NCBI GenBank assembly: GCA_035998215.1
Contig: DASYHU010000025.1
Location: forward strand, 134,867-198,866
Length of the DNA stretch: 64,000 nt
Reading direction: 5' to 3'
Source of the DNA: Roseococcus sp.
GTDB lineage: Bacteria; Pseudomonadota; Alphaproteobacteria; Acetobacterales; Acetobacteraceae
The translations under genes were made by a program, and so were the position numbers. Under the pieces are notes generated by a model that saw nothing but the letters and a program-made list of their open reading frames with translations, was not told where the DNA came from and did not search any database. Positions 26,987 through 42,505 of this stretch are shown in pieces (within the stretch, counting starts at the first letter, position 1; every line of letters starts with the position of its first letter).

Positions 26987-27934
26987 CTAACCGGCCGCCA
27001 CGCGGTCGGCCATCTGGGCGTGCCGGCGGCCCATCGGCTTGTCCGGCGCGGTGGTCGTGTCGCGGGCCGTCTGGTGCTCCATCTCGGCGTTCAACTCGCC
27101 CCCCAGCAGGATGACGAGGGCCGAGAGCCAGATCCAGGTCATGAACCCCACCACGGCGCCGAGCGAGCCGTAGGTCTCGTTGAAGCTGCCGAAATTCGCG
27201 ACATACCAGGAAAAGGCGGCCGAGCCGCCCAGCCACGCCACCGAGGCGAAGGCGCTGCCCCAGCTCACCCAGCGCCATTTCGCCCGCGCCCGGCTCGGCC
27301 CCCAGCGGTAGAGGCAGGCCAGCACCAGCCCCACCAGGACCAGCAGCACGGGCCAGCGTCCGTGGCGCAGCAGGCTTTCGGCGGTGCCGCCCAGCCCCAC
27401 CATGCCCAGCACCACCGGCACCGCGACCACGCCCATCATGGTCAGGATGGCGAAGAGAATGAGGCAGAGGGTGAAGGCCAGCGTCACCGCGGTGAAGTGG
27501 ATGAAGCTGCGCTTCTCGCGCTCCTCGTAGACGATGTTCAGCGCGTCGAACATCGCCTTCGCCGCCTGGTTGGACGACCACAGGGAGACGAGCAGGCCGA
27601 GCACGGCGCCCAGTCCCAGCGTGCCGCCGCCGGTCTCGGTCACGCGCGCCACCTGTTCCTCGATGATCTGCATGCCGCCTTCGGGAACGAAGCCGCCCAG
27701 CGCGGAAAGGTGGCCCTGGATGGTCGCGGGGTCCGTCCACAGCGCATAGAGCGAGGCCAGCGCCGCCAGCGCCGGGAACAGCGCCAGCAGGGTGTAGAAG
27801 GTGATGGCGGCGGCCTCCATCATCAGCCGGTCCTCACTGGCCTGCTGGGCGGTGCGCTTCAGGATCTGCCACCAGCCCCGGGGCGGGATCTCGGACGGGC
27901 TCCGCGCGGCGGCACCGGCGGGGGGTGTGGCCAT
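26987..27934 (-). CDS. YihY/BrkB-family integral membrane protein
   Basis: WWQILKRTAQQASEDRLMMEAAAITFYTLLALFPAL ... LWSSNQAAKAMFDALNIVY ... is the typical YihY family sequence. ATG at 27934 (MATPPAG...) is preferred. The ORF could extend to 28123. Confidence 0.8.
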   Translation of the reverse strand: MATPPAGAAARSPSEIPPRGWWQILKRTAQQASEDRLMMEAAAITFYTLLALFPALAALASLYALWTDPATIQGHLSALGGFVPEGGMQIIEEQVARVTETGGGTLGLGAVLGLLVSLWSSNQAAKAMFDALNIVYEEREKRSFIHFTAVTLAFTLCLILFAILTMMGVVAVPVVLGMVGLGGTAESLLRHGRWPVLLVLVGLVLACLYRWGPSRARAKWRWVSWGSAFASVAWLGGSAAFSWYVANFGSFNETYGSLGAVVGFMTWIWLSALVILLGGELNAEMEHQTARDTTTAPDKPMGRRHAQMADRVAAG

Positions 27935-28212
27935 TGCCGGCCGCGGGCATCGCGACGGGGCGGCCGCGCGTGGAGATGAAGTGAGCGAACTGCTCGCAAC
28001 CAGCGCCAGAAGCGCCGCCAGGGCGGCACCGCCGAGCAGCCAGTCGCCCCGTCGCGCGCCACGCCCGTCGTCATGCTGCTCCCAGCCCGCCATGCCCAAT
28101 CCCCGCCTTGCCTGCGAAGCCAACGCCGCAGGAAGGCCCAGGTGGCGCGTGACCGACGATTTCGCGGACGGAGGCGGAGATTCTCGAACGGAGGCCGGGC
28201 TTCAGCGACCCC

Positions 28213-29481
28213 TCAGCCGCGCCCCGGCGCGACCCGCTCCAGGAACTCCGCATAGCCGGCGACCACCGCCCCGTCCGCCTCGACGTGGCGCGACAGGACG
28301 CGCAACGCCGTGAGGTAGCGGCTTTCCAGGCTGAGGGAGAGGAATTCCCTGTCTCCGACCGTGATCCGCGCCAGCTCGGCCTTCACGCCGAGGATGGCGC
28401 GGTATTGGCGCCGGGTCTTGCGGACCTCGACCACACCTGGGCGGTATCCGGCCGCCACCAGGGCCGCCAGCAGCTGCTCGCGGTCGCGCAGCTTCGCATG
28501 GACGTCGTTGAACCGAGCGAAGATTCCAGACAGGCGCTGGGCGCGCGCGGGAAAGGCCAGGCGGAGGCTTGGCCCGAAGGCGCAGAACTCGTCGAAGGCC
28601 TCGATGACGGGCTTCACCTTCAGCCCCCCGCCGCGCAGCTTGATGTTGTCCCGCTTGCCATGGACGAAGAGGTAGGTGTCCGCCTCCGTCTCCTCGTCGC
28701 CCGGCCGGGCCGCGCCGGCGAGGTCGAGCGCGGTGGGCAGGAAGGGGCGCGCGCCGGCCGGCCAGAAGGCCCGCCATTCCCAGCGGGCGCCAGGGCGCGG
28801 CGCCGCCCTCGGGCGGCCCTCGGGCCAGAGGACATAGGCGCGCAGCCTCTCCCGCAGGCGGGCCAGCGTGGCCGAGACGCCGCGCCCCAGCAGTTCCATC
28901 CGGCCGATCGCCTCGATCCGCGCCGCATGCCGGGCCTGCCACGTCTCGGGCGCGGGCAGGGCCAGGATATCGGCCATCCTCCCGGAGGCGTGCAGCACCG
29001 AGACCAGAGCCGCCTGTTCGGGCGAGGGCAGGTCGTCGCCCTCCACCAGCGCGCGGATCGTGGCACGCAGCGCGGCCGGCGCGCGCAGGTCGCGCAGCTG
29101 GGGCCGGGCCTGGCAGAAGCCCCATGGCAGCGGCGCCCGCCCGGCCTCCAGATACCCCCGGGTCTGCAACGCCGCCAGGATCTCCGCCCGCACATCTCCG
29201 ATGCGGCCCAGAATGGCCTCGATCACGGGTTCAATCGGCGCCGGCCCGTCCAGCAGCGGGGTAAGGAAGGGCGGCAGAGATCCACGCCCCATCCGGGTGA
29301 CGCTGTGCAGGTCCGTGTCCACCTCGCCCCGCAGCGAGAGGTCCATCAGCTGCGCGGCGGCCAGGGGATAATCCAGGTCGGACCACCAGACGACGTCGCG
29401 CGGGACGGGTGGCAGGGACAGGCGGAGGATTTCGAGCGCCTCGGCCGTGGAAAGCCCGGCGGGCCCCAGCAATGCGTCCAT
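28213..29481 (-). CDS. Two-domain protein: N-terminal GPP34/GOLPH3-like domain fused to a C-terminal CYTH-like (triphosphate tunnel) domain
   Basis: 422-aa ORF. The N-terminal half (LSTAEALEILRLSL ... PLAAAQLMDLSLRGEV ... EQAALVSVLHASG) resembles bacterial GPP34-family proteins. The C-terminal half (RWEWRAFW ... DTYLF ... NIKLRGGGLKVK ... VEVRKTRRQYR ... KAELARITVGDREFLSLSLES) resembles the beta-strand pattern of CYTH domains. Both assignments are by eye. Confidence 0.45.
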   Translation of the reverse strand: MDALLGPAGLSTAEALEILRLSLPPVPRDVVWWSDLDYPLAAAQLMDLSLRGEVDTDLHSVTRMGRGSLPPFLTPLLDGPAPIEPVIEAILGRIGDVRAEILAALQTRGYLEAGRAPLPWGFCQARPQLRDLRAPAALRATIRALVEGDDLPSPEQAALVSVLHASGRMADILALPAPETWQARHAARIEAIGRMELLGRGVSATLARLRERLRAYVLWPEGRPRAAPRPGARWEWRAFWPAGARPFLPTALDLAGAARPGDEETEADTYLFVHGKRDNIKLRGGGLKVKPVIEAFDEFCAFGPSLRLAFPARAQRLSGIFARFNDVHAKLRDREQLLAALVAAGYRPGVVEVRKTRRQYRAILGVKAELARITVGDREFLSLSLESRYLTALRVLSRHVEADGAVVAGYAEFLERVAPGRG

Positions 29482-29599: not shown

Positions 29600-30748
29600 C
29601 TATCGGATGGGCGGCGAGAACTGGAGACCGCCCTGGTTCCACAGCAGGTTCATCCCGCGCTCCACACCCAGGGGGCCGATGTTGCGCTCCCAGATTTCCC
29701 GGTAGTTCCCCACCTGCCGGATGACGCGCGCGCCCCAGTCGGGATCGAGGCCCAGCATCTCGCCCGAGCGGCCCTGGCGGCCGAACAGGCGCTGCACATC
29801 CTGGCTCGCGGCCGCGAGGTTCTGGGCCGGCCCGGTGCGAAGCTGCTCCACCACGGTGCTGTCCAGGCCCATTTCCTCAGCCGTCAGCATCACGAAATGG
29901 GTCCAGCGGGCGATGCGCGAAAGCCGAAGGTCCTCCTGCCGCAGCACGGGGCCGAGAGGCTCCTTCGAGATCACCTCGAAGAGCAGCGCGAAGCGCGAGG
30001 CGCGGCTGCCCTGCTGCGCCATGAAGCCGGCCAGGCCCGTGCTGTCGCCCGTCAGCGCGTCGCATTGCTGGGCCAGAAAGGCCGCACGCGCCGCCTCCCC
30101 GCTCGGCGCGCGGGCCAGGTTGATGCGCAGCCCGGCCCGCGTCATGTGCTCGACGAGCTGCTGCTCGGAGGTGGTGCCGCCCTCGACGCAGATGGTGGCG
30201 CCCTCAAGCTGCTGCACGCGGGTCACCCCGCGCTCACGGCGCACCAGGAAGCCCTGGCCGTCATAGTAGGTCGTGGCGGGGAAGATCACGCCCTCGCCCG
30301 CCTCGCGCTCCAGCGTCCAGGTCGTGTTGCGCGCCAGCAGGTCCACCTCGCCGGCGCGCAGCCGCGCGAAACGGTCCGCGGCCGGGATGGGGACGAAGCG
30401 CACCCGGGCCGGGTCGCCCAGGATGGCCGAGGCGATGCCGCGGCAGAAATCCGCGTCCAGCCCCTGCCAGGCGCCGCGCGCGCCCTGCACGGCGAAGCCG
30501 GGGGCGGCCGGCGCCACCCCGCAAAGCACGTGGCCCCGCGCGCGAATGGCGTCCACCGCATCGGGGGCCGGCGCCGACGCCGTGGGCGGGGCAGGCTGCG
30601 CCGAACCGGGCCGTGGCGCGGCGGCGAGCAAGGCCGCCACCCCCAGCGCCGTGCCCAGCAGGCCACGGGCCGCGCGGCGCAGGGCGCGCATGTCGAATGT
30701 GCCAGCCATCATCATGTTCTGTCCTTCGGGATTGGTGCTTCGCGTCAT
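29600..30748 (-). CDS. Periplasmic amino-acid-binding protein, AapJ/BztA-like (orphan, no adjacent permease or ATPase)
   Basis: 382-aa ORF. Signal peptide ...LGVAALLAAAPRPGSAQ, then IRARGHVLCGV ... GLDADFCRGIASAILGD ... RNTTWTLERE ... YYDGQGF ..., typical of general L-amino-acid binding proteins. Internal Met starts at MMMAG are possible. Confidence 0.75.
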   Translation of the reverse strand: MTRSTNPEGQNMMMAGTFDMRALRRAARGLLGTALGVAALLAAAPRPGSAQPAPPTASAPAPDAVDAIRARGHVLCGVAPAAPGFAVQGARGAWQGLDADFCRGIASAILGDPARVRFVPIPAADRFARLRAGEVDLLARNTTWTLEREAGEGVIFPATTYYDGQGFLVRRERGVTRVQQLEGATICVEGGTTSEQQLVEHMTRAGLRINLARAPSGEAARAAFLAQQCDALTGDSTGLAGFMAQQGSRASRFALLFEVISKEPLGPVLRQEDLRLSRIARWTHFVMLTAEEMGLDSTVVEQLRTGPAQNLAAASQDVQRLFGRQGRSGEMLGLDPDWGARVIRQVGNYREIWERNIGPLGVERGMNLLWNQGGLQFSPPIR

Positions 30749-30751
30749 GCG

Positions 30752-31738
30752 TCAGGCCGGGCCGTCGGCCATGCGCCGGAGCCAGCTTGCGGAGCGGAAG
30801 GGCCAGATGCCCTCGGGCCGCGCCGCCAGCCCCTCGGCCTCGGCGAGGCGCGCGGCCCTTTGCTCGGCCTCGGCGGCGGTGACGCGCACCCCGCTGAGCC
30901 GGCGGTAGAGCTTCGCGCCGTTCTTCACATCGCCCTTGGCAAGGCGTCCCTTGCGATCCTGCACGGAGCGCAGGTAGGCAAGGGTGTCGCGTTCCAGCTG
31001 GCGGCCCGGGAGGCTGCCGGCGGCATCGGCGGTGGCCTCCAGCGCCTGTTGCGCCTCGGTGGCGCTGAGGCCGAACTCCGTGACGCCACGGCTGAGCAGC
31101 GCGAGGTCCGAGGCCGGGTCATGCCCGCCGGTGGCGTTGCGCAGCCGGGCAAGCTCGGTGAAGGCCCGCGCATCGCGCGGCGGGCCCTCCGCCTCCTGCG
31201 GGGCCAGCATGGCGCCGGTGCCGAGGGCCGCCGCGGCCGTCAGCCGGGCGGCGGGCTCCACCCCTTCGGCGCGGAAGCCGCGCGGCACGCAGGTGGCGCA
31301 GGGCAGGACGCGCACGGAGCTGTCCAGCTCCATCAGCTTGATCTCGATCTGCAGGTCGGGGTGGCGGGCGCGCACCGCGGCCGCCGCGCGGTTCAGCACC
31401 TCGCCATGCACGCGCAGCTCGTCGGCCGGATCGGCGGAGAGGCGCCGTCCGGCCCAGAGATGCATGGCCCCGCAGTCGCGGTGGTTCAGGAAGGTGACGG
31501 TGCGGATGCCGTGCAACTGGCGCGACGCGGCGAGGTTGTCGAACAGCGCGCGCGACCAGGCCGCGTTGTGCTCCTCCAGCGCGGCCAGGGCGCCGCCCGC
31601 GATCCGCATCTCGCTGTAGCGGTCGGTGCGGCCGAGCGCCGAGAAATAGAAGGTGGTGTCATCGGTGAGGCGCGGGTCAATGCAGGACACCAGGAAGGTG
31701 TCCGCGGCACGGGGCGTCTCGTTCGAGGCATTTTGCAT
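30752..31738 (-). CDS. Beta-carbonic-anhydrase-like domain protein with a C-terminal uncharacterised helical module
   Basis: 328 codons from MQNASNETP (ATG at 31738). SCIDPR (CxDxR), EMRIAGGA and FLNHRDCGAM (HxxCG) reproduce the beta-CA zinc-ligand and Asp-Arg dyad pattern. Residues ~188-328 align by eye with the whole product of 34789..35220. Confidence 0.55.
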   Translation of the reverse strand: MQNASNETPRAADTFLVSCIDPRLTDDTTFYFSALGRTDRYSEMRIAGGALAALEEHNAAWSRALFDNLAASRQLHGIRTVTFLNHRDCGAMHLWAGRRLSADPADELRVHGEVLNRAAAAVRARHPDLQIEIKLMELDSSVRVLPCATCVPRGFRAEGVEPAARLTAAAALGTGAMLAPQEAEGPPRDARAFTELARLRNATGGHDPASDLALLSRGVTEFGLSATEAQQALEATADAAGSLPGRQLERDTLAYLRSVQDRKGRLAKGDVKNGAKLYRRLSGVRVTAAEAEQRAARLAEAEGLAARPEGIWPFRSASWLRRMADGPA

Positions 31739-31740
31739 CG

Positions 31741-32154
31741 TCAGTAGACCTTTTCGACATGGGCGATACCGGAGAGGCGGTGGTGCAGGTGGGGGAAGGA
31801 CAGGCCGGTCGCGTAGATCAGCGCGACACCGGTCAGCAGGCCGGTGAGGAGGCCGGATGCGCTCCAGCCGCCGCCCATTCCCGTCAGGCCCGAGATGGCC
31901 ATCCAGCTGGCGAAGAGCGTGGCCGCCACCAGCAGCACGCCGCGCCACTTCAGGACGCCCAGCACGCTGGCGATGACCATGGCGTGCAGGCCCACCAGCG
32001 CCATGCCCACCGCAAACTTGAGCCAGAAGCCGCCTTCGCCCAGCCAAAGCCAGTGCCAATAGGAATGGCCGCTCGGGTTGTAGACGGCGAAGACGATGAA
32101 GAAGCCGAACAGGATCCGTGCGATGAGCGAGGTCCAGTCGAAGGGGTGGCTCAT
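31741..32154 (-). CDS. Small integral membrane protein (about four predicted TM helices), unknown function
   Basis: 137-aa ORF. Hydrophobic segments ILFGFFIVFAVY, FWLKFAVGMALVGLHAMVIASVLGVL, VLLVAATLFASWMAISGL and LLTGLLTGVALIYATGL. ATGA overlap with the upstream gene, and 2 nt before the downstream gene. Confidence 0.6.
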   Translation of the reverse strand: MSHPFDWTSLIARILFGFFIVFAVYNPSGHSYWHWLWLGEGGFWLKFAVGMALVGLHAMVIASVLGVLKWRGVLLVAATLFASWMAISGLTGMGGGWSASGLLTGLLTGVALIYATGLSFPHLHHRLSGIAHVEKVY

Positions 32155-33263
32155 GGCATGGCCCTCCCCAGCGGGGCGGCCGCGCCCAGGGTTTCGCAGC
32201 CGCGCGCAGGCGGGCGCAGCGCCACGCGGCGCGCGGCCAGCGTGGCCGCGGCCAGGTCCTGCGCGCCGGCCGCGATACCCTGCTCGGCGGCCTCCAGCAC
32301 GCGCAGCGCCTGCGCCTCGAACTCGCCGCGGTGCAGCGCCGAATCCAGGCGGCTCAGGCCCCAGTCGAGCGTCCAGGAGGCGCCCATGCCGGCCGCGGCC
32401 CCCAACGCGACGCCCGAAGCGCCGCCCATGGCGAAGCCCAACGCCCCGGCGGCCGCGACGATGGAGCCTGCCTCGCTGGCCCGCAGCACCGCCGCGCCCA
32501 CGCGCGCGGCCATGGGCCGGATGGTCCGCAGCAAGGTGACGCCGGCATCACCGGGATGCAGGGCACCCACCGCCGCCGGCGGGACCGCGAGGTCGGGCAC
32601 GAGGGACTGTCCCGCCGCCCGCAGGTCCAGACGCGCCGCCACGGGCGCGCCGGGTGCGGCAGCCGCCTCCAGCGCGGCCAGCATCGCCGCTTCACGCCGC
32701 AGCGCCGCCTGCCACGCCAGGTCCAGCACCCCCGCCGCGTGGCGCAGGTCGGCCAGCAGGCCATCGGCGAGGTCCGGCGGCAGCACACGCGCGCCGAACG
32801 CCTCGCGCATGGGCTGCGAGACCTCCTCGACGAGGCGCTCGGCCCAGCCCGCCTGGTCGGCCTCGGGGGTGGGGGCGACGAGGCCGCGCAGCATGCGCCC
32901 CAGCACCTGGTAGGACGTGACGTAGGACTGCACCCAGCCATAGGCCCAGTCACCGAAGGCCGGCACGCGCTCACGCGCCTCGGCGAGGCGGGCGGCGGCG
33001 GCATCGGCCATCAGGCGCCCGGCCATGGCCGCGAGCCGCTCCGCCTCCTCGGCCAGGCGTGTCTCGACCCCGGCCAGGGCGGCGGCGGGCAGGATGCGCG
33101 CCACGCAGGCACCATCGGGCGCGATGACGGCGACCGCCAGTCGCGCCTCTGCGCGGCTGCCCGAAAGGCCCGCCAGCAGCGCCGCGCCGCCCAGAAGCAG
33201 CAGGCCCGACAGCGACGCGGGCAGCCCGCGCCTTCTCCAAGTTCGGCGCCCGGCCAAATTCAT
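32151..33263 (-). CDS. N-terminally anchored hypothetical protein with a Gly/Ala-rich C-terminal segment
   Basis: 370-aa ORF. RRRGLPASLSGLLLLGGAALLAGL anchor or signal, an Ala-rich helical body, then GSIVAAAGALGFAMGGASGVALGAAAGMGASW. I recognise no family. Coding is supported by tight coupling to downstream genes. Confidence 0.5.
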   Translation of the reverse strand: MNLAGRRTWRRRGLPASLSGLLLLGGAALLAGLSGSRAEARLAVAVIAPDGACVARILPAAALAGVETRLAEEAERLAAMAGRLMADAAAARLAEARERVPAFGDWAYGWVQSYVTSYQVLGRMLRGLVAPTPEADQAGWAERLVEEVSQPMREAFGARVLPPDLADGLLADLRHAAGVLDLAWQAALRREAAMLAALEAAAAPGAPVAARLDLRAAGQSLVPDLAVPPAAVGALHPGDAGVTLLRTIRPMAARVGAAVLRASEAGSIVAAAGALGFAMGGASGVALGAAAGMGASWTLDWGLSRLDSALHRGEFEAQALRVLEAAEQGIAAGAQDLAAATLAARRVALRPPARGCETLGAAAPLGRAMP

Positions 33264-33307
33264 GCTAACCTTCCTGCCATGGGCATTGGCTGGAAGATTG
33301 GAGCTTC

Positions 33308-33946
33308 GTGATGGCCACCGAGGTCGCGATGCGGCTGAGCGAGGCGCTGCTTATGGGCTTGCCCGCCTGGCTGGCGCTTGGCGCCGCCTGGCTGTGCGGC
33401 TGGCGGCTGCGCGACATGGCCTGGCTTGGGGATGCGCGCTGGGCGGCATCCCTGGCACTCGCGGCGGGGACGGCGCTCGGCCTCGCGCTGGTGGCGGCGA
33501 GCCCCCATGCGCGGGAGTTCGCGCCACACCGAATCTTCGCGCCCGACGCCATGTGGGCGGCGAGCCTCGGCGAATTGCTGGGACGCGAGGCGTGGCCCGG
33601 CCCCGTGGCCGCCGCGCGACTCCTGGCCCGGCTGCCGGGCGACGTCCCTGGGGCGCTGGCCGTCCTGGTGGGTCTTATGCTCCTGGCCGGGTTGGCCGGC
33701 CTCTGGGCGCGCAACCGCGGGCTGCCGGCCGGGCGAGGTGTCGCCGCGCTCGCCCTGCTGGTCCTGGCCGGCGCGCTGGGCGCGCACCTGCTGGTGCATC
33801 TTGGCGCCTGGGGCGTGCGGCGCCTCAGCTTCTGGACCTTCCTGGTGCTGCTGCTGGCCTTCCAGCAGTGGCGGTGGCACCGGCGCTGGGCCCGCCTGGG
33901 CTGGGCCTTGCGCGGGATGCATCGGTCGGAGCTGGCGCCGGGCTGA
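33308..33946 (+). CDS. Polytopic membrane protein, unknown function
   Basis: 212-aa ORF with a GTG start. It has several hydrophobic helices (LPAWLALGAAWLCGW, SLALAAGTALGLALVAA, LAVLVGLMLLAGLAGLW, VAALALLVLAGALGAHLLVHLGAW, FWTFLVLLLAF). It is divergent from 32151..33263. Confidence is limited because GC-rich shadow ORFs are common here. Confidence 0.4.
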   Translation: MMATEVAMRLSEALLMGLPAWLALGAAWLCGWRLRDMAWLGDARWAASLALAAGTALGLALVAASPHAREFAPHRIFAPDAMWAASLGELLGREAWPGPVAAARLLARLPGDVPGALAVLVGLMLLAGLAGLWARNRGLPAGRGVAALALLVLAGALGAHLLVHLGAWGVRRLSFWTFLVLLLAFQQWRWHRRWARLGWALRGMHRSELAPG

Positions 33947-33966
33947 GGCGCTAGGGGCCCTGCGCA

Positions 33967-34776
33967 TCATTGCACCTGCATCAGTTCAAGGAAGGGCCGG
34001 GCGGAGAGCAGCGCGGGATCGCCGGCCAGCGGGTGTGCAAGCTTCACCGCCACCAGCAGCACCCCGCCCACGATCAGCGCCGTCACGGCCCCCATCGCGA
34101 TGTGCAGGCCCCGGTTGGGCCCGCCGAAGAACCACTGGAAGCTGATGACCGCGACCGAGACCATCATCACCAGGAACCAGATCAGCCCCGACAGCGTCCG
34201 CGACGTGACCGAGAGCCGGCCGATGCGCGCGTCGCCCACCTGCGCGATCCATTGCGTGGTGTTCTGCAGCAGCGCACCCTGCCCCTGCGTCAGCGGCTCG
34301 GCATCGAGGAAGGCGCGCGCCAGGCGCTGGAAGGCCGCGTCGGAGCCGACCGAGGGGATGCCAGCCTGCAGCGAGGGCCAGTCCAGCGCCACCACATCGC
34401 CGGCATAGCCGCGGATCGCGCCCCGCATGGCCTCGCGCAGCGGGGCCTGTTCGGCCAGGCTGAAGCTGTCCACGCTGAGCGCCAGCATGTAGAGGCCGCC
34501 CACCTCCTGCTGGAGCACGTCGCGCATCGTCGAGTAGATGTCCCAGGCGCCGACCAGCGTCAGCGCCGCCACGGCCGCGTAGATCTCGACCACGAAGCCG
34601 TATTTCACCGAGGCCATGAAGGCGTTCTGGGTGAATTCCTGCTGCGTGAAGATGCCCGAGATCACGCTGCCCACCAGCAGCGCGATCAGGACCGGGACGC
34701 CCACCGCGGCCAGCGCGGCGAGCGGCAAGGGCAACCCGGCCAGCGCGATGGTCAGGGAGCTGTCGAGGAAGAGCAT
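33967..34776 (-). CDS. DUF4239-like membrane protein (TM pairs at both ends, soluble middle)
   Basis: 269-aa ORF. N-terminal LTIALAGLPLPLAALAAVGVPVLIALLVGSVISGIF and VEIYAAVAALTLVGAW. C-terminal LIWFLVMMVSVAVISF and AMGAVTALIVGGVLLVAV. The topology and length match my recollection of DUF4239. Confidence 0.5.
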   Translation of the reverse strand: MLFLDSSLTIALAGLPLPLAALAAVGVPVLIALLVGSVISGIFTQQEFTQNAFMASVKYGFVVEIYAAVAALTLVGAWDIYSTMRDVLQQEVGGLYMLALSVDSFSLAEQAPLREAMRGAIRGYAGDVVALDWPSLQAGIPSVGSDAAFQRLARAFLDAEPLTQGQGALLQNTTQWIAQVGDARIGRLSVTSRTLSGLIWFLVMMVSVAVISFQWFFGGPNRGLHIAMGAVTALIVGGVLLVAVKLAHPLAGDPALLSARPFLELMQVQ

Positions 34777-34788
34777 GGCGTGCGCCGC

Positions 34789-35220
34789 CTACGCTTCGAT
34801 TGCGCGGTACCAGCGGCGGGTCCGCAGCAGCCGGCCGCTTCGCCGCGGCTGCAGCTCCATCTCCTCCATGAGGCGCTTCACCCGCCGCTCGGCCTCGGCC
34901 TGCGACAGGCCAGCCCCCGCGCGCATGCGGTAAAAGCTCGCGACCTTGCCGAAATCCTCGCGCGAGATGCGGCCATGCCGGTCGGCCATGGTGCGAAGCA
35001 ATTGCCCGCCCGAACGGCTGAGATCCCCCTCCAGCGCGATCTCCGTGCCCTCGGCATGGGCGCGCACCACGCCCGTGGCCTCCTCCAGCGTCAGGCCGTA
35101 GCGGCCGACACCCTCCTCCAGCAGCCGGCGCTCCTGCTCGCGGTCCAGGAAGCGGCGGCCCTGCATGTGCAGCTTCACGAGCTCGGCGAAGCGCGCGCTG
35201 GCGCGGCCTTCATGCAACAT
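34789..35220 (-). CDS. Small soluble helical protein homologous to the C-terminal module of 30752..31738
   Basis: 143-aa ORF. FAELVKL ... LLEEGVGRYGLTLEEA ... LLRTMADRHGRISREDF ... FYRMRAGAGLSQAEAERRVKRLMEE aligns by eye with FTELARL ... LLSRGVTEFGLSATEA ... YLRSVQDRKGRLAKGDV ... LYRRLSGVRVTAAEAEQRAARLAEA. Confidence 0.55.
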   Translation of the reverse strand: MLHEGRASARFAELVKLHMQGRRFLDREQERRLLEEGVGRYGLTLEEATGVVRAHAEGTEIALEGDLSRSGGQLLRTMADRHGRISREDFGKVASFYRMRAGAGLSQAEAERRVKRLMEEMELQPRRSGRLLRTRRWYRAIEA

Positions 35221-35313
35221 CGGTCAGCCTCCTCCGGTTGGAGGGAGGGACGCAGGGCGGACAGGCCGCCATTCGGGGCAAGTGGTCCATTTTGGGCCTC
35301 TTCGGAAGAAGGT

Positions 35314-36033
35314 TCAGGAGCGTGTGCCCGGCAGCGTGGCGGGCTGGAGGAACGGGGTCAGAACCGCCGGCGGGAAGGGCTGCTCGGGCGCCTGCGCCCG
35401 GCGCTCCTCCAGCTGTCGGTTCAGCCGGTCGATGGCGCGCAGGATGCGGGCCGCCTCCACGCCCACCGGCGCATCGGTGGGCACGAGCTGCAGCTTCACC
35501 TTGGGCCAGGGAAACAGGTCGATCTCGACCTTCTCGACCGAGAAGCCACCGATCTCGCTCGCCTCCAGCACGGCGCGGACGATGGCCCGCTGCATGGCCT
35601 CGAAGGTGCCCGGGTTGCGGCGCGCGTGGCGCTCCAGCTGGCGTTCCACATGATCCCGGTCGGCCTCGGTCAGCTCGCGTGCTTGCCCGAAGGTCAGCGA
35701 CAGGCTGGGAATGAGGCTGACCGAGCTCTCGATTTCCTTGAGCTTGTAGCCGGCCACGTCCATCAGCCAGGCGAAGTCGTCGCGCGCGCGGGCATGGCGG
35801 CGCGCGGTGTCGGTGGCGCTGCGCATCATGCCATTGGCGCCCGGCGTGATGCCGAGCTGGTCCAGCAGGCCGGACCAGAGCTGGCCCGCGCGCTCGCCCA
35901 GGCTCGGGCTGGGCGGCAGGTCCTGCAGGGGCACGGTGACGACCGTGCTGGGCTGGGTGGCCGCGGGCATCGAGAAGGCGACTGCCCCCAGCAGCGCAAG
36001 CGCGGCGATGGCCCTGGTCTGGCGGTGCGGCAT
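35314..36033 (-). CDS. Secreted hypothetical protein
   Basis: 239 codons from MPHRQTRAIAALALLGAVAFSMPAATQ (signal peptide, ATG at 36033). The remainder (DDFAWLMDVAGYKLKEIESSV ... VEKVEIDLFPWPKVKLQLV) matches no family I recognise. Confidence 0.5.
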   Translation of the reverse strand: MPHRQTRAIAALALLGAVAFSMPAATQPSTVVTVPLQDLPPSPSLGERAGQLWSGLLDQLGITPGANGMMRSATDTARRHARARDDFAWLMDVAGYKLKEIESSVSLIPSLSLTFGQARELTEADRDHVERQLERHARRNPGTFEAMQRAIVRAVLEASEIGGFSVEKVEIDLFPWPKVKLQLVPTDAPVGVEAARILRAIDRLNRQLEERRAQAPEQPFPPAVLTPFLQPATLPGTRS

Positions 36034-36058
36034 GGCGGATGGTTCCTTCGTCGGGGGG

Positions 36059-37132
36059 TCAGCGGGAACGGAGCGAGAGGCGCTCGGCCACGCGCCGCTG
36101 GGCGTGACGCTCAGCCGGCGGGAGGGGGACGAGGCCGGCCAGTCCAAGATAGCCGCCCGGCCCAGCCGCCCGTTCGCTCGTGGCTTCGGTGAGGAGGGCG
36201 CGCAGGCCTTGCACAACGCCCACGCCCTCGCGCGTCGGCAGGTGCTGGCGCTTCGCGTAGAGGAAGACGACCTGCGCCTGGTTGTAGTCGAGCGTGGCGA
36301 TGCCGGCCGCGTCGGGCAGCACGCCGTCGAGCCGCAGCGGCAGCAGGTTGCCACCCGCGCGCAGCAGCTGGTCATAGGAAAGCACGGCGATGGTGCCCGG
36401 CGGCGCCGCCAGCAACGCGCCCATGATCTCCCCATGGGCGACAGGCACCGCCCGCTGATCCTCGCGCAGGGTCACGCACTTGGACCGGCGGTAGGACGCC
36501 TCGAACAACAGGCGAATGGCGCGCACTTCGCGGCAGCCCGCCTCCAGCATCAGGTCTTCCATCAGAGCGCGCATGCCGGTGCCAGCCTCGGGCACCAGCA
36601 TGCGGATCTCGCGCGGCGGCAGGGAGGGGTCGATCTCGGACCACAGCCGGGTGCGGTTGGGCTCGAAGCCCTCACCGCTGGTGCGCTCAGCCGCAAGGGC
36701 CTCATAGATCTGGCGGCTGGTCAGCGCGGGGGCGATGTCGCCACGGCGGGCGGCCAGCACCACGGCACTGTAGCCCAGGCGTAGCTCCACGACCTCGGTC
36801 ACGCCATTGGCGCGGCAGTGCTCCATGACACCGCGCGGCATGCGGCGGCTGACAAGGGCAAAGTCGGGCGTGTCGGGGCCTATGCCGGCACAGAAGCGCT
36901 CGAAAGCTTCACTGCCGCGCATCACCTCCAGTTGCGGCGGGTGCGCGCCCTGCGTCCCCTCGGCGAAGCGCTGCGCCAGCATGCGGCCCACCCCCTCCGT
37001 GGAAAAGGTGCCGGCGACGGTCAGCCGGTCGCGCAGGGTGAGCGAGCCAGTGGCCATGGCGGGCAGCGTGGCGAGCATCACGCCCAGCAGGCCGGCGAGT
37101 CCAAGGGCGGTCTTGCGCAAGATGATCTCCAT
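36059..37132 (-). CDS. Periplasmic PstS/PBP-like substrate-binding domain protein without a cognate transporter
   Basis: MEIILRKTALGLAGLLGVMLATLPAMA signal peptide (ATG at 37132), then LTVAGTFSTEG ... FCAGIGPDTPDFALVSRRM ... ELRLGYSAVVLA ... LPLRLDGVLP, which resembles PBP_like_2-type phosphate/anion-binding folds. Confidence 0.5.
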   Translation of the reverse strand: MEIILRKTALGLAGLLGVMLATLPAMATGSLTLRDRLTVAGTFSTEGVGRMLAQRFAEGTQGAHPPQLEVMRGSEAFERFCAGIGPDTPDFALVSRRMPRGVMEHCRANGVTEVVELRLGYSAVVLAARRGDIAPALTSRQIYEALAAERTSGEGFEPNRTRLWSEIDPSLPPREIRMLVPEAGTGMRALMEDLMLEAGCREVRAIRLLFEASYRRSKCVTLREDQRAVPVAHGEIMGALLAAPPGTIAVLSYDQLLRAGGNLLPLRLDGVLPDAAGIATLDYNQAQVVFLYAKRQHLPTREGVGVVQGLRALLTEATSERAAGPGGYLGLAGLVPLPPAERHAQRRVAERLSLRSR

Positions 37133-37172
37133 GGTCTGGACGGGGGCGACCCACAGGGAGGTGGGAGGGAGC

Positions 37173-37970
37173 TCAGGCGGGACCATCGATCCCCCCTCCC
37201 ATGGCCCGCAGCAGGGTTTCCTGGATGGCGTGCTCGACCGCGAGGCGCCCGCGCGCCTGGGCGAGCCAGCCGCTCAGCAGCGGTTGCAGCGCGGGGTCGA
37301 GCGTGGCCGCGTCATGCAGGGCCGCGGCCAGCTGGCCACGGCGCAGCTGTTCGCGGATGCGCTGCACGGCCGCCTCCGTGCCGCTCGTGGGCGGCGGCGT
37401 GGCAAGGCCCAACGCAGAGAAAGTGCCGCGCGCCGCGAGCCCCAGGCGCTCCAGCAGGCCGCCCTCGGCCGGGGTGCGCGCAAGGAGGGCGGGGGCCAGC
37501 GTGTCGAAGCGCTCCGCAAGGGCGGCCTCGCTGGCCAGGCCGCGCGCGGCGTGGCTAGCCAGCACCTCGGCCACGGGCGGCGGCAGCGCGCCAGCCGGGG
37601 CAAGGCTGACGGCCAGGTCGTATTCGCGTAGCCACGGCCGCGCGGTCGCCGCAGCGGCCTGCAGATGCAGCATGGCAAGGATGAAGCGTTCACGCGGGGC
37701 CGTCGCCGGCCCCATGTGCGCGGGCGCGCTGGCCGGCCGGGCCTGGCCGCGCTCGAGAGCGGAGAGCCGCGCGGAAATGGCCGCCAACTGCTCCTGCGGC
37801 ACCACCGCCATGCCGGAGCCCAGCGGCGGCGTGCGCCATTCGGCCCAGGCGACGCCCGCCACCACGCCCAGCGCCGCCGCGGCCGCAAGGCCCGCCAGCG
37901 CGCGGGGCGAGACGCGGCCAGGCCCGGAAGTCTTGGCCTGGACGTCGGCGCCTGGCGGCATGTGTGCCAT
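37173..37970 (-). CDS. Membrane-anchored protein with a mitofilin (Mic60/COG4223)-like C-terminus
   Basis: 265-aa ORF. Anchor ALAGLAAAAALGVVAGVAWA. The C-terminus VQRIREQLRRGQLAAALHDAATLDPALQPLLSGWLAQARGRLAVEHAIQETL resembles the alphaproteobacterial mitofilin-domain signature (L..GDL..A...L......W...A..R). Assigned by eye. Confidence 0.45.
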   Translation of the reverse strand: MAHMPPGADVQAKTSGPGRVSPRALAGLAAAAALGVVAGVAWAEWRTPPLGSGMAVVPQEQLAAISARLSALERGQARPASAPAHMGPATAPRERFILAMLHLQAAAATARPWLREYDLAVSLAPAGALPPPVAEVLASHAARGLASEAALAERFDTLAPALLARTPAEGGLLERLGLAARGTFSALGLATPPPTSGTEAAVQRIREQLRRGQLAAALHDAATLDPALQPLLSGWLAQARGRLAVEHAIQETLLRAMGGGIDGPA

Positions 37971-37990
37971 CTTGACCTACGCCGACCGCG

Positions 37991-38566
37991 CTAATGGACC
38001 AGCTCGACCGCGCCCGAGGCGGCGGTCAGGCCGGCATCCACCACCAGGGTGGGATGGCGGCGCCGGACCTCGGCGGCGAATTGGCGCAGACATTCATGGT
38101 GCGCCGCCTGTTCCGCCGCGGGCGCCGCCACGGCGGCGTCGCCGAAGGCGAGCTTGGCCGCGCCACAGTCACGATGGGTCAGCGCCACGACCCGCTGGAT
38201 GCGGTGCAGATCGACCGAGACGGCAAGGTTCTCCCAGAATGTCTCGTGCCACCCGGCGAAACGCGGATGCACCGCGCCGATCGGCCCGCCGGCGATCACG
38301 AACTGGCTGAAGCGCCCGCGCAGGCCGCGGGCGGCCATGTAGGCCGAGCTGGGCGAAGCGAAGCGCGGGTCAATGCAGTTCACCAGCATCGCCTCGTAGT
38401 TGCCGCTTGCGGCGCGGGCGGGCGAACCGGCCCAGAGCGTGGCCGCGAGGGCACCGCCCAAGCCGAATGCCTGGCGACGCCCCAGGGCGCCCATCGGCCC
38501 GCAGCAAGGGCAGGAATCCTCCGACGCCCCGGGCGTGCTGCCCTTGTGGCCCATGCTGCGCATCAT
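37991..38566 (-). CDS. Exported (Tat-type signal) beta-carbonic-anhydrase-like protein, paralog of 30752..31738
   Basis: GRRQAFGLGGALAATLWAGSPARA twin-arginine-like signal, then LVNCIDPRF (CxDxR), FVIAGGPIG and ALTHRDCGAAK (HxxCG). The start is ambiguous: Met codons lie at 38566, 38563, 38554 and 38494. Confidence 0.55.
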   Translation of the reverse strand: MMRSMGHKGSTPGASEDSCPCCGPMGALGRRQAFGLGGALAATLWAGSPARAASGNYEAMLVNCIDPRFASPSSAYMAARGLRGRFSQFVIAGGPIGAVHPRFAGWHETFWENLAVSVDLHRIQRVVALTHRDCGAAKLAFGDAAVAAPAAEQAAHHECLRQFAAEVRRRHPTLVVDAGLTAASGAVELVH

Positions 38567-38801
38567 GCGTGCTCCTCGGCTCTGCTGACGCGGCGCAGAC
38601 TGGACCGGCGGGCGTGAAGGCCGGGTTAACAGGGGCGACCCATCACATTCACGGGTGGTCCACCCCGGGCAGGCCAGGCAGGGCCACACGGCCGCCCGTC
38701 ACGCGCGGTTCACTTCCCGTTTACGCGCGGTCCCCGATCATGCGCCGCAGACGACTTGGCATTCGGTCTGGCAGAGGTGCTCGTTGAATCACACGCGGAG
38801 C

Positions 38802-39524
38802 ATGGAGGGCATTTCCTTCGCCGATCGGCAGCTGGCATCCGCCGAGGCCGGATGCGCCGACCCTTGGCGCCCCAGCGAATTCACCGCCTTCCTGCTCCAC
38901 ACGCTGCAGACCCGCGCCAGGCGGCATGTGCGCGGCACGGTGCTGGAGCTCGGCGTGGGCTCGGGTGTCGTGCTGGCGAGCCTGGGCGCACTCGGCGCGG
39001 AACGCCTGGTCGGCACCGACATTGACGCCGGCGCGCTCGACAGCGCCCGGCGCCTGCTGGCCGAAACAGGCCACCAGGCGGAACTGCGGCTGGGGGACCT
39101 TTGGGCCGGGCTGGAAGGCCAACGCTTCGACCTGATCGTGGCCAACCCCCCGCAATTCGCCGCCACCGTGCCCCGGTTTCCAACGCGCGCCCGCAGCTGG
39201 AGCGATGGCGGTCCGGATGGGCGGCGCGTGCTGGATCCCCTGCTGATGGGCCTGGGGCCGCACCTGGCCGAGGGGGGCCGTGCGCTACTCGTGCACAGCG
39301 CCTTTCTGGGCATCGGGCAGACGCGCAGACTGCTGGCGGCGCAGGGCCTCGCCTGCCGGCGCATCGCCTCCACACTCATGGTGGTGCCGCCCGGAAAGCG
39401 GGCCCTGATGAACCCCGCCGTGGCCGCCGCCACGAGCGCCAGGCTGTTGCAGCAGGTAGGCGAACACTGCTTCGTCCAGGCCGACATCCTCGACATCGCC
39501 CACCGCGTTGGCGCTGGCCGCTAG
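38802..39524 (+). CDS. HemK/PrmC-like class I methyltransferase with an NPPQ motif
   Basis: 240 codons from MEGISFADRQ. VLELGVGSGVVLASL (motif I), GTDIDAGAL, and DLIVANPPQF, where N5-glutamine/N6-adenine methyltransferases have NPPY/F. Its stop lies 3 nt before the next gene. Confidence 0.6.
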   Translation: MEGISFADRQLASAEAGCADPWRPSEFTAFLLHTLQTRARRHVRGTVLELGVGSGVVLASLGALGAERLVGTDIDAGALDSARRLLAETGHQAELRLGDLWAGLEGQRFDLIVANPPQFAATVPRFPTRARSWSDGGPDGRRVLDPLLMGLGPHLAEGGRALLVHSAFLGIGQTRRLLAAQGLACRRIASTLMVVPPGKRALMNPAVAAATSARLLQQVGEHCFVQADILDIAHRVGAGR

Positions 39525-39527
39525 GGC

Positions 39528-41168
39528 ATGAGCCATCCGGGCGGCGCCTGCTTCGTGCCTGTGTGGCGCCCGCTGCTGGCGGCGCTGCTGCTCTGGCTGC
39601 TCGCTGGCGGAGCTGCGGCGGGTGCCGCGCCGGGCGAGACGCGCATCGCGGAACTGGTGACGGAGGCGGAGGCTTCCGCCTGCACGGTGAATGACGCCCT
39701 GGTCGCCGTTCTCTGCCGCGGCATCATCCGCGTGGGCGTGCGCACGGACTATGCGCGATTCGCCGAACGCCGCGCCGCGCACGAATGGGTGGGGTTCGAG
39801 GTGGACCTCGCGCGCGGCCTCGCGGCGCGGCTCGGCGTGCAGCTCGAACTGGTCCCCGTCACGCCCGCCAACCGCATCGCCATGCTGGCGGAGCGGCGGG
39901 TGGACGCGGTGATCGGCACCATGGGGCATACGGTGGCGCGCGACAGCCAGGTCCGCTTCATCCGCCCCCACTACTATGCCTCGCGCACCGTCATCGTGGG
40001 CGACCGTCGCGTGGCCACCGACGGCACCGGGGATCTTCGCGGCCTGACCGTCTGCGTGACCATCGGCAACGCGGACAATGCGCGGATCGCGGGCGAGGGC
40101 GCGCGTCTGCTGCTGTTCGACAACCCCGCGCAGATGCTCGACGCGCTTCGCCTCGAGGTCTGCACCCTGGCCATGCACGACGACGCGCTGTTCAGCGTCC
40201 ACCTCGCGGACCCGGCTTTCGCGGCGCGCTTCACGACCCGCATGGTCGTCTCCACCCTGCCCTGGGGCATGGCCACCCGGCAGGAGGATCGCCTGGCGCG
40301 CGTGATGGACATCCTCTCCACCCGCTGGCACGCGGAGGGGTATTTCCTCGCCCTGGCAAATCACCACGGCATCGCGGAGGGTCCGCTGCGCGAGGAACAG
40401 GCGCGCTGGCAGGACCCCGCCTGCCTCGGCGCGGATGGCGCCCCGCGACTGGAATGCCTGGCGCCGCCCGCCGTGCTGCTGCTGCTTCCCTCCGCCATCG
40501 CGCCCGGGGTCGAGGTGCTGGAGCGCTGGCTGCTGGATTGGCTCGGCCTGCGCGTGTCGCTGCCCATGCTGAAGTCCCAGATCGCGCTCGAGGTGTTCCT
40601 GCGGGGCATCGTCATCTCGCTGCTGCTGGTCGCCGGCGCGCTTGTCGCGACACTGGGGCTGGCGCTGGGGTTCGGCGCCGCCCTGTGCGCGCGCCACGCG
40701 CTGCCGCGCCTCGTCATGCGCGCGCTCACGGGGCTGCTGCAATGCTCGCCCCTCGTGCTGCTGCTGTTCTTCGGCTACGCCGCGGTGAGCGTCATCCTGC
40801 CCTATTCGACGGGTGTCGCATTGCTGCTCGCGATCGTGATGATCGGGCTCTACAACGGCAGCCACGCCGCCGCCGGCATCGCCGACGCCCATGCCGCCCT
40901 GCCGCCCGACGTGCCGCCGGAGTTGCGGTTCCGGCTGGCGGTGCGGGGCGCCTCGGTGCAAATCATGTCCTTCCTCGTGAACGCCACCAAGAGCACATCC
41001 ATCGCCAGCATGATCGGCGTGCCCGAATTGCTGAACGCGCTGACCGACATCACCTCCTTCACCAGCGAGCGCGTGCTGACCTACTCCTTCCTGCTGGTGT
41101 TCTATGCGTCGCTGGTGGCGCTGGTGGTGTGGGCCGGAGGGCGGGTGCAGCGCCGGCTACCGGCATGA
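39528..41168 (+). CDS. Fusion of a polar-amino-acid-type periplasmic binding domain with an ABC permease domain
   Basis: 546-aa ORF. Signal/anchor LLAALLLWLLAGGAAAGA, a binding domain (IIRVGVRTDYARFA ... GFEVDLARGLAARLGV ... DAVIGTMGHT), and a C-terminal His/Glu/Gln/Arg-type permease (LLQCSPLVLLLFFGY ... KSTSIASMIGVPELL). Confidence 0.75.
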   Translation: MSHPGGACFVPVWRPLLAALLLWLLAGGAAAGAAPGETRIAELVTEAEASACTVNDALVAVLCRGIIRVGVRTDYARFAERRAAHEWVGFEVDLARGLAARLGVQLELVPVTPANRIAMLAERRVDAVIGTMGHTVARDSQVRFIRPHYYASRTVIVGDRRVATDGTGDLRGLTVCVTIGNADNARIAGEGARLLLFDNPAQMLDALRLEVCTLAMHDDALFSVHLADPAFAARFTTRMVVSTLPWGMATRQEDRLARVMDILSTRWHAEGYFLALANHHGIAEGPLREEQARWQDPACLGADGAPRLECLAPPAVLLLLPSAIAPGVEVLERWLLDWLGLRVSLPMLKSQIALEVFLRGIVISLLLVAGALVATLGLALGFGAALCARHALPRLVMRALTGLLQCSPLVLLLFFGYAAVSVILPYSTGVALLLAIVMIGLYNGSHAAAGIADAHAALPPDVPPELRFRLAVRGASVQIMSFLVNATKSTSIASMIGVPELLNALTDITSFTSERVLTYSFLLVFYASLVALVVWAGGRVQRRLPA

Positions 41169-41178
41169 GCATGGCGCG

Positions 41179-41802
41179 ATGATCGAGGTCCTGCCCGACT
41201 TCCTGCCGCGCTTCTTCGCGGGCCTGGCCGTAAACGTCGAGATCGCGATGCTCTCGCTGCTGGTGGGGCTGGCGGCAGGGCTTCCGCTGGCCGTGATGCT
41301 CTGCGCGGGGCCGCTGGCCGCGGGGCCGGCGGCGGCCGTGGTCGGGCTGCTGCGGGCGGCCCCCACCTTCGTGGTGATGTTCTTCCTGCTCAACGCCGTG
41401 CCGCGCGAGTATGCGGCGACCCTCGGCTTCCTGGGCGATTGGAGCATGACGGCGGTCATCCTCTCGCAAGCCGTCTACGCGGTCTCCTATGTGGCGGACA
41501 ACGGCCAGGTGGCGCTGCGGGCGCTGCGCGCGCGCGACGGCGCGACCGCGGTGCTGTTCCTGCCCAACCTCGCGCGGGCCTTCTGCGTGCTGCTGATGTC
41601 GTCCGGGGTGGCCGCGGCGGTGGGTACGCCAGAGGCCATCTTCACCACCATCCGCGAGGCCGAGCGCATGCCCGCCCTGGCCGACCGCGTGGCCCTCTTC
41701 CTGCTGGTGATGCTCTTCTTCGCGGTGACGATGCAGGCCGCCTTCGCCCTGATCAACCGGCTGCGCTTCCGCCTGGCGCGGGCGCTGGCGCCCCGTGGGT
41801 GA
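41179..41802 (+). CDS. ABC transporter permease (polar amino acid type)
   Basis: 207 codons from MIEVLPDFLPRFFAGLAVNVEIAMLSLLVGL. LLRAAPTFVVMFFL ... is a typical permease core. No ATPase gene follows. Confidence 0.7.
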   Translation: MIEVLPDFLPRFFAGLAVNVEIAMLSLLVGLAAGLPLAVMLCAGPLAAGPAAAVVGLLRAAPTFVVMFFLLNAVPREYAATLGFLGDWSMTAVILSQAVYAVSYVADNGQVALRALRARDGATAVLFLPNLARAFCVLLMSSGVAAAVGTPEAIFTTIREAERMPALADRVALFLLVMLFFAVTMQAAFALINRLRFRLARALAPRG

Positions 41803-42505
41803 GGGGCGCGGGGCCAGGAGCAAGGGTCAGCCGGAGAGGCCGGCCTGTTCCAGGCTGTGCCGGCGGTGGCACCGGCCGGCGGCGCGCCGACATGGGACCT
41901 TCGGGGCGGCTTGATCGCATGCGAAGCATCTTCGCGCATGGTCCCGATGTCCGATTCGATGCTGGCGAAGACAGCGCAACACCCAGCATGAGGACGGGGA
42001 AATTCGGGCCGTGTGGCCGCCGGTTCTGTCGAGTGGCGCTCGTTCGCGGATGGGTGGGCAGGACATGGAAAGCAACGCCCGCGCCGGGGTGCTGCGTGCG
42101 AAACCAGTCCGCTGCGCAAGGGATGTGGTCCAACCCTGGCTCTCCACAGGGGGCCCCATCGGCACAAGTGCAAAGGTCAGCGCCCTGCGCCTGATCTCCA
42201 AATGGGCGTGGCCGTCCGGATCCAGGCCCAGCGAGACATGGCTTGGCTGATCGAACCCCGGCACCCGTTCGACATTGCCGAGCGGCGTGAGCAGGGATTC
42301 AACGGCGTCTCCAGTCAGGCCACCTGCCAACTTGCCGAGGAGGCACGGGCACTGCGCGGGGGAAGCATCGTGAAGGCGGAGGTGTCGCCGCCTTGCACCG
42401 ACGCATAGCCGCATAAAGCTGACACCGAAACGAAGCCAGGGTTGGGGTCAAAACCCCGCCTCACTCCGTAGAGACATCTTTGATTCCTGCGCCTTGGGAG
42501 AGATC

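Follow-up and report, generated by a model that had tools for sequence, protein, structure and literature searches.

In a 64,000-nucleotide stretch of Roseococcus sp. DNA (GenBank contig DASYHU010000025.1, positions 134,867 to 198,866; hereafter the window), we found an envelope gene cluster that is conserved in Acetobacteraceae of the Roseomonas, Falsiroseomonas and Humitalea group. Its nine genes occupy positions 30752-37970 (Table 1). Among their products a single one, CA1, can be recognised as an enzyme; it resembles beta-class carbonic anhydrases (CAs). In related blocks of other Alphaproteobacteria, the slot of CA1 is filled by a CA-like domain of the unrelated iota class, fused to the same helical module that CA1 carries at its C-terminus. 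To explain these results we propose that CA1 is docked via this module to an inner-membrane anion-channel complex, where it would couple CO2/HCO3- interconversion to anion flux. We put the probability of this reading at roughly 45%.

The real conserved unit runs from g9 to CA1. In order, it comprises genes for a Mic60-like protein (g9), a PBP_like_2 protein (g8), a secreted protein (g7), a helical protein (g6), a Bestrophin-like protein (g5), the opposite-strand gene g4, g3, a DUF6524 protein (g2) and CA1. The core recurs in the same order and orientation in 12 other genomes (L001, L017, L081, L082, L083, L084/85, L090, L091, L092, L093, L094 and L095, the last cut off at one end so that g9 is missing there), with flanks that are unrelated from genome to genome and with CA1 as its end in all 12 loci; g7 and g6 encode ~240 and ~144 aa there. 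The initial annotation had described two CA-like genes bracketing a set of envelope genes. That the intervening genes stay together in relatives is what the comparison gave; the bracket fell away as a conserved feature, since the second CA-like gene, CA2, lies beside only 6 of the 13 blocks.

Literature searches found no description of such a gene cluster, in agreement with the earlier remark that no described system has this gene content. We rate the cluster type as new and undescribed, and we infer its function from comparative genomics alone. All ten open reading frames (ORFs), the core plus CA2, bear a coding signature: at a window G+C content of ~74%, their third-position GC lies between 0.87 and 0.94. 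For g4, the value is 0.90 on the plus strand versus 0.78 for the overlapping minus-strand ORF. The spacing reported earlier was right, with a 4-nt overlap of g3 and g2 and a 93-nt gap between g7 and g6. A PADLOC search with all ten proteins returned no match, which rules out an anti-phage defence system. An Rfam scan for RNA elements gave nothing at gathering score, and promoter and terminator scans did not outperform shuffles, as expected at 74% GC.

A helical module shared by two classes of carbonic-anhydrase-like domain

CA1 is built of a beta-CA-like domain (residues ~12-145), a CxxC motif (C147, C150), a linker and a helical module (residues ~190-325), the last being the extra C-terminal module of the initial annotation. 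By alignment, the small protein g6 is homologous to this module: BLASTP matched it to CA1 residues 207-321 with 33% identity over 115 amino acids (aa; E 4e-12). An AlphaFold2 model of g6, built with CA1 orthologs as the alignment, is all-helical and has a pLDDT (predicted local distance difference test) of 89.6. Its helices (H4-19, H27-39, H45-59, then H64-78, H87-101, H107-120) follow a pattern that looks like two similar halves. A fold search of the model against the PDB gave no significant match (best E 1.1).

An exhaustive HMMER search, run against 1.84 billion representatives, turned up 132 relatives, the majority of them stand-alone proteins of 135-160 aa. Some are of the CA1 type, with Pro_CA_2 at the N-terminus (for example P0343, at 31.6 bits above the cut-off of 30). 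In about a dozen, the module forms the N-terminal part and a CaMKII_AD/SnoaL/DUF4440 domain comes after it. The top PDB hit for this second domain, whose sequence ends with HHSS or HHHSS, is 3H51 (E 3e-15 and 5e-11). In the literature, 3H51 counts as the iota-class CA of X. campestris and HHSS/HHHSS as the iota-CA signature (PMC8425729, PMC7191908). The named members of this fusion come from metagenome-assembled genomes labelled 'Alphaproteobacteria bacterium' and 'Rhodospirillaceae bacterium'. Described iota-CAs, such as the X. campestris protein, BteCA-iota and LCIP63 of the CaMKII-AD / SgcJ-EcaC family, are periplasmic or plastid proteins with signal peptides and without such a module (PMC7191908, PMC8425729); in these other Alphaproteobacteria the HHSS domain is fused to a g6-type module. 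The window has no iota-CA domain.

The neighbourhood of the fusion is also familiar. Scanning metagenomes with the fusion proteins yielded three loci, L086 and L087 with full-length fusions and L088. The neighbours of the module-iota-CA gene in L086 and L087 include a DUF6524 gene (85.6 bits in Pfam), a gene homologous to g3 (E 6e-15, hhalign probability 98.4%), one for a small glycine-zipper protein and a g6-like gene that stands alone. A long coiled-coil protein is also encoded beside the fusion. In L087 it has 488 aa, its C-terminal region is weakly g9-like (BLASTP E 5.5e-4) and it has no Pfam Mitofilin match; a 608-aa coiled-coil protein stands at the same position in L088. L087 further contains a g4 homolog (weak, E 1e-5) and a second protein with a Mitofilin score of 30.3 bits, above the cut-off of 27.4. 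Thus a conserved set is found repeatedly, made up of DUF6524, g3, g4, the g6 module and Mic60-like proteins, and the CA that goes with it belongs to one or the other of two unrelated classes. The iota-CA-like domain fills the slot of the beta-like CA, each fused to the same module, and this suggests that the module serves to attach the enzyme to its partners in the membrane.

What substrate, then, does the enzyme act on? The beta-CA fold also covers carbonyl sulfide (COS) and carbon disulfide (CS2) hydrolases, and the PF20393 (Pro_CA_2) proteins to which CA1 and CA2 are related are very divergent from assayed beta-CAs (PDB E 0.0036 to 1.5), so the CA-like proteins could act on another small molecule of this kind, handled by the block. 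We consider this very unlikely: the enzyme slot of related blocks holds an iota-CA-like domain, a class reported as CO2 hydratase (PMC8425729), and the block has no sulfur-metabolism genes. Finding two unrelated CA classes in the same neighbourhood points to CO2/HCO3- interconversion, and away from COS or CS2 hydrolysis, as the chemistry that matters, and this class replacement is the strongest argument for CO2/HCO3- as substrate. The initial annotation had suggested an envelope-spanning system for CO2/HCO3-. Its chemistry is favoured by the replacement; transport across the envelope we can still only infer.

CA1, CA2 and the beta-class fold

CxDxR and HxxCG make up the Zn ligands and the Asp-Arg dyad of beta-class CAs. 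Both window proteins carry corresponding motifs, as had been noticed before: SCIDPR or NCIDPR, IAGG and HRDCGA. They align with 40% identity over 133 aa (E 2e-26), which marks them by sequence as unambiguous paralogs. For both, the best Pfam match is Pro_CA_2 (PF20393, 'putative carbonic anhydrase'), at 21.3 bits for CA1 and 27.9 bits for CA2, under the cut-off of 30. Against Pro_CA (PF00484), CA2 reaches 14.9 bits versus a gathering cut-off of 25.7 and CA1 has no match. Sequence searches against the PDB returned beta-CAs only, weakly (E 0.0036 to 1.5). The HxxCG motif aligns with the known ligand motif of 1DDZ and Rv1284, and a CA2 profile likewise matches 1DDZ with HxxCG aligned.

Conservation points the same way. 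Among 42 CA1 orthologs, D21, R23 and C89 never vary, and conservation of C19 and H86 is 90% or higher. Among 19 members of the CA2 family, C64, R68, H131 and C134 are invariant, with D66 and the twin-arginine RR at least 90% conserved. The predicted Cys/His/Cys ligands for Zn and the Asp-Arg dyad are thus kept in the orthologs of both. The AlphaFold2 model of CA1 has a pLDDT of 83; its top 50 PDB matches in Foldseek are all beta-CAs (best E 3e-5, target-normalised TM-score, that is template modelling score, 0.37-0.55). The fold of CA2 was taken from its 40% identity to CA1. From alignments and model, the beta-CA fold and conserved ligands that the initial annotation had proposed hold for both proteins. 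They are nonetheless very divergent, minimal beta-CA-like proteins whose activity is predicted.

Compared with characterised beta-CAs (Pro_CA, PF00484; Cab 1G5C, Rv1284 1YLK, Porphyridium 1DDZ), CA1 and CA2 are alike in predicted fold and in CxDxR + HxxC. They differ in falling under the Pfam cut-off, in their short core (~130 aa) and in TM-scores of 0.45-0.55; CA1 adds the CxxC and the helical module, and CA2 a twin-arginine translocation (Tat) signal and a Cys-rich N-terminus. Pro_CA_2 itself is carried by most CA2 homologs (the majority of 738) and, as a precomputed domain, by some CA1 homologs; our literature search found no characterised member of PF20393. Roseomonas, Falsiroseomonas, Neoroseomonas and Humitalea have full-length CA1 orthologs that include the module and are at least 50% identical. 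In a plasmid collection, we found homologs of the CA domain only, on Azospirillum megaplasmids and without the block, and no match to the iota fusion.

The CxxC lies right after the CA domain (window 31289-31300) and is invariant in 42 of 42 CA1 orthologs; it may bind a second metal or be redox-active.

CA1 is predicted to be cytoplasmic and CA2 to be exported, as the initial annotation had it. The Tat signal of CA2, GRRQAFGLGGALAATLWAGSPARA, has the twin-arginine motif noted earlier (GRRQAFGLGG...ARA), then a hydrophobic stretch and a cleavage site of the AxA type. N-terminal to the twin-arginine motif, CA2 orthologs share a conserved Cys/His-rich motif (consensus HxxxCGC), which in the window reads 'EDSCPCCG' (aa 16-23, window 38498-38521). 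Its position in a Tat signal peptide is unusual, and it may be metal-binding or regulatory.

How closely is CA2 tied to the block? It could be functionally unlinked, an independent periplasmic enzyme whose adjacency merely records local gene-order history. We scanned species-representative genomes for the CA2 family and obtained 80 loci (Acetobacteraceae, Burkholderiales, Stellaceae, Reyranellaceae), with 9 kb or more to each side in 34 of them. Block genes lie near CA2 in only two of the 80 (L001, L017). Around the other 78, ORF clustering found no conserved neighbour, the most frequent family occurring at 17 loci. Looking from the block, CA2 is not present at 7 of 13; in Roseomonas sp. HF4 the two are on separate contigs (CA2 on L019, the block on L083). 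The six linked cases fall into three arrangements. CA2 is upstream of g9 on the same strand in the window, L001, L091 and L092, which are one lineage because they share flanking genes; it is upstream of g9 and divergent in L090; and it lies ~2 kb downstream of CA1 in L017. The different flanks of L090 and L017 speak for a link, in that adjacency must have come about, or been kept, in three or more configurations, and we find full independence of CA2 somewhat doubtful. The two-CA bracket is in any case lineage-specific. With CA2 missing from 7 of 13 blocks and 78 of 80 orthologs unlinked, it is an optional companion at most.

Membrane components and a possible docking mechanism

By prediction, g6 and CA1 lie in the cytoplasm, and the DUF6524 protein, g4 and g5 cross the membrane several times. 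A periplasmic location is predicted for g3, g7, g8 and most of g9. Pfam and transmembrane prediction mostly agreed with the descriptors of the initial annotation. The product of 31741-32154 has the four transmembrane segments it was given, and Pfam adds DUF6524; the 'DUF4239-like' g5 belongs to a family now named Bestrophin-like; and g8 is indeed a PstS-like domain without a transporter nearby. The 'mitofilin-like' label of g9 fared less evenly: at 17.4 bits, the window protein is under the Mitofilin cut-off of 27.4, and the Humitalea ortholog (L081) passes it at 32.3 bits. One description had to be revised, that of g3 as N-anchored: the ortholog alignment makes it more likely that g3 has a cleavable signal peptide, with a glycine-zipper membrane segment at its C-terminus.

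Table 1. Genes of the conserved core and CA2, with positions in the window
Gene	Position	Strand	Description
CA1	30752..31738	-	328 aa; cytoplasmic (predicted) beta-CA-like domain and C-terminal helical module
g2	31741..32154	-	DUF6524 (Pfam 63.7 bits); predicted membrane protein with four transmembrane segments
g3	32151..33263	-	Predicted signal/anchor, helical domain with VPAFGDWAYGWVQSY motif, C-terminal glycine-zipper hydrophobic segment
g4	33308..33946	+	Predicted polytopic membrane protein (4-5 transmembrane segments); no Pfam family
g5	33967..34776	-	Bestrophin-like PF14023 (former DUF4239), 113 bits vs cut-off 32; four predicted transmembrane segments
g6	34789..35220	-	143 aa; soluble, all-helical (model); no Pfam family
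g7	35314..36033	-	239 aa; predicted secreted/periplasmic, signal-peptide-like N-terminus; no Pfam family
g8	36059..37132	-	Predicted periplasmic PstS-family binding protein, PBP_like_2 53.6 bits
g9	37173..37970	-	265 aa; first gene of the core; N-terminal anchor (transmembrane aa 20-38) and Mic60/mitofilin-like C-terminal domain
CA2	37991..38566	-	191 aa; Tat signal, predicted periplasmic beta-CA-like protein, Pro_CA_2 family

The DUF6524 gene always lies directly upstream of CA1, with a 2-nt gap in the window and a 4-nt overlap in relatives. Its distant homologs gave nothing further than a tandem DUF6524 pair beside a TPR protein on a 2.8-kb contig. g3 has no Pfam family, and a profile search of the PDB with it found nothing. 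With tblastn, 11 of the 12 other loci show a g4 homolog that is equally placed and oriented against the cluster, and gene callers list an opposite-strand gene of ~200 aa there in most loci, including L090, the one negative by tblastn. g5, a candidate anion channel by its family, is conserved in all 12 beta-version loci. g8, the start of which (37132) we picked from the ortholog alignment, aligns end to end with the PstS structure 9JWY (E 1.5e-29, 314 aa). Its anion-binding motifs are partly altered relative to PstS (GSST to GTFST, SGTR to GTGMR), and no pst permease or ATPase genes were found in the block at any locus examined. The core of g7 is strongly conserved in seven orthologs.

g4 is the sole opposite-strand gene in an otherwise co-directional cluster, and it has the same place in the other genomes examined. 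The divergent starts of g4 and g3 are only 44 nt apart (window 33264-33307). Embedded as g4 is, transcription of g3-g2-CA1 must begin within g4 or cross it antisense. A g7 profile matched structures of ribosome hibernation factors (S30AE/HPF) weakly, over ~100 aa (E 0.02), which is probably a fold-level resemblance only. A g7-like ORF proposed in L087 was not supported (hhalign probability 2.4%).

From these parts we envision the following arrangement. The C-terminal module would dock CA1 onto an inner-membrane complex of DUF6524, g3, g4 and the Bestrophin-like protein, with g6 possibly competing or cooperating with the module for docking. An active CA1 could then couple CO2/HCO3- interconversion to transmembrane anion flux, in whichever direction this may run, as in a CA-channel 'metabolon'. 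Where present, the Bestrophin-like protein would serve as the path for HCO3- (or another anion), and the periplasmic ligand of the PstS-like g8 would be an oxyanion. Organisation of the periplasmic face may fall to g9, the Mic60-like anchor, together with g8 and g7. CA2, when present, would equilibrate CO2/HCO3- on the periplasmic side and would not be obligatory.

The same parts list could belong to a module of envelope architecture or lipid homeostasis. Mic60-type contact sites between inner and outer membrane, or a specialised membrane domain, would then be built with glycine-zipper proteins and Mla components, and the CA would be a local sensor or supplier of CO2, bicarbonate or pH, not part of a transport metabolon. 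Each block has one or two Mic60-like proteins, and a Mic60 paralog has a precedent in specialised membranes, in the magnetosome island (bioRxiv 10.1101/2022.06.14.496148). MlaA adjoins 5 of 12 blocks (L017, L083, L090, L093, L094), and a fused MlaF-MlaE (ABC_tran+MlaE) adjoins the iota version (L086 8201-9784, L087 8382-9974); this recurrence of Mla genes near the block may point to a connection with lipid handling in the envelope. Moreover, what the beta and iota versions have in common are membrane and Mic60-like parts, not the Bestrophin-like or PstS-like ones. Yet the CA is always present, swapped for a non-homologous one and not lost, DUF6524 and CA1 are tightly coupled, and the MlaA adjacency is neither universal nor found in the window. 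On balance, we hold a mainly architectural or lipid role to be the less likely reading and the chief rival.

Returning to CA1 docked at an anion-channel complex, several observations weigh against it. Both CA-like proteins of the window score under Pfam cut-offs. CA1 has only ~12-18 residues before its first Cys ligand, and the canonical N-terminal active-site elements are not evident by eye. In most genomes, CA2 is unlinked to the block. In the iota-version loci, tblastn gave no hit for the Bestrophin-like, PstS-like or g7 protein of the window, and the 'channel' part therefore lies outside the most widely shared core. Finally, the Mla genes near blocks and the Mic60-like proteins point equally to a role in membrane architecture or lipids.

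A broader formulation leaves the channel aside. Alphaproteobacteria would have a membrane-organised CA system that has so far gone unrecognised, in which a docking domain of new fold brings a CA, beta-like in some cases and iota-like in others, to DUF6524, g3, g4 and Mic60-like proteins assembled in a complex, maybe at a Mic60-shaped domain or contact site for CO2, HCO3- and H+. We regard this extension as rather doubtful.

Known systems and genomic surroundings

The closest functional analogies are CA-transporter metabolons (AE1-CAII/CAIV), DabAB, SbtA and CmpABCD. The analogy is one of function only, as no component is homologous. It would consist of a CA positioned at a route for anions through the membrane together with a periplasmic binding protein, sometimes with a CA on the other face. 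Pfam and NCBIfam scans of the ten products found no DabA, DabB, SbtA, Cmp/NrtA-type or BicA signature family.

For g9, the relevant comparison is with Mic60-Orf52 and with the Mic60 paralog of the magnetosome island, which it resembles in having an N-terminal transmembrane anchor and a putative mitofilin-like domain at the C-terminus. The magnetosome-island paralog also shows that such a protein can sit inside a gene cluster of specialised membrane function. g9 differs from Mic60-Orf52 in being short (265 aa), in having little coiled coil and in its Mitofilin score under the Pfam cut-off. The canonical context of alphaproteobacterial mic60 is hemC-hemD-mic60-orf52 (bioRxiv 10.1101/2022.06.14.496148); none of the 13 loci has hemC, hemD or Orf52 neighbours.

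If the proposed coupling is true, the cluster would link the handling of inorganic carbon to several uncharacterised families (DUF6524, DUF4239/Bestrophin-like, PF20393, g3, g4 and g7) and to the g6 module. The g6 module is a new CA-associated domain common to two unrelated CA classes, a rare, clean case of non-homologous enzyme replacement inside one conserved neighbourhood. The block would also be the second gene cluster with a Mic60-like paralog after the magnetosome island, and would thus bear on how crista-type organisers were used before mitochondria. These ideas are testable, as the carrier genera Roseomonas, Falsiroseomonas and Humitalea include sequenced isolates.

Relatives of the block often have additional genes, among them those for a glycine-zipper protein that is small and secreted, another anchored protein of the mitofilin-like kind and a second Bestrophin-like protein. 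A family of ~120-150 aa (typically ~130 aa) without Pfam match accompanies the block in 9 of the 12 beta-version loci, usually directly after CA1 (for instance L083 2720-3103, L090 11015-11437, L091 10995-11423, L093 11647-12075 and L094 11680-12039), and is found in the iota-version locus L087 as well (6818-7273). The window has no homolog of the relatives' glycine-zipper protein, second mitofilin-like protein, ~130-aa protein, MlaA or second Bestrophin-like protein.

Outside the block, an AapJ-like gene (29600-30748) forms the flank on the CA1 side. Just beyond it lies a gene for a 422-aa protein (28213-29481) with a GPP34 (Golgi phosphoprotein 3) domain at 53.5 bits, followed by one for a BrkB-family membrane protein (26987-28123). 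Relative to the rest of the window, AT-skew makes marked negative excursions at 24001-26000 (-0.26) and at 40001-42000 (-0.22). On the CA2 side, a methyltransferase gene (38655-39524) and an ORF at 39528-41168 are the flank held in common with L001, L091 and L092. This ORF encodes 546 aa, with about six predicted transmembrane segments in its C-terminal half. Its position-equivalents in L091 and L092 (542 and 544 aa) carry SBP_bac_3, which suggests that it is a solute-binding domain fused to a permease.

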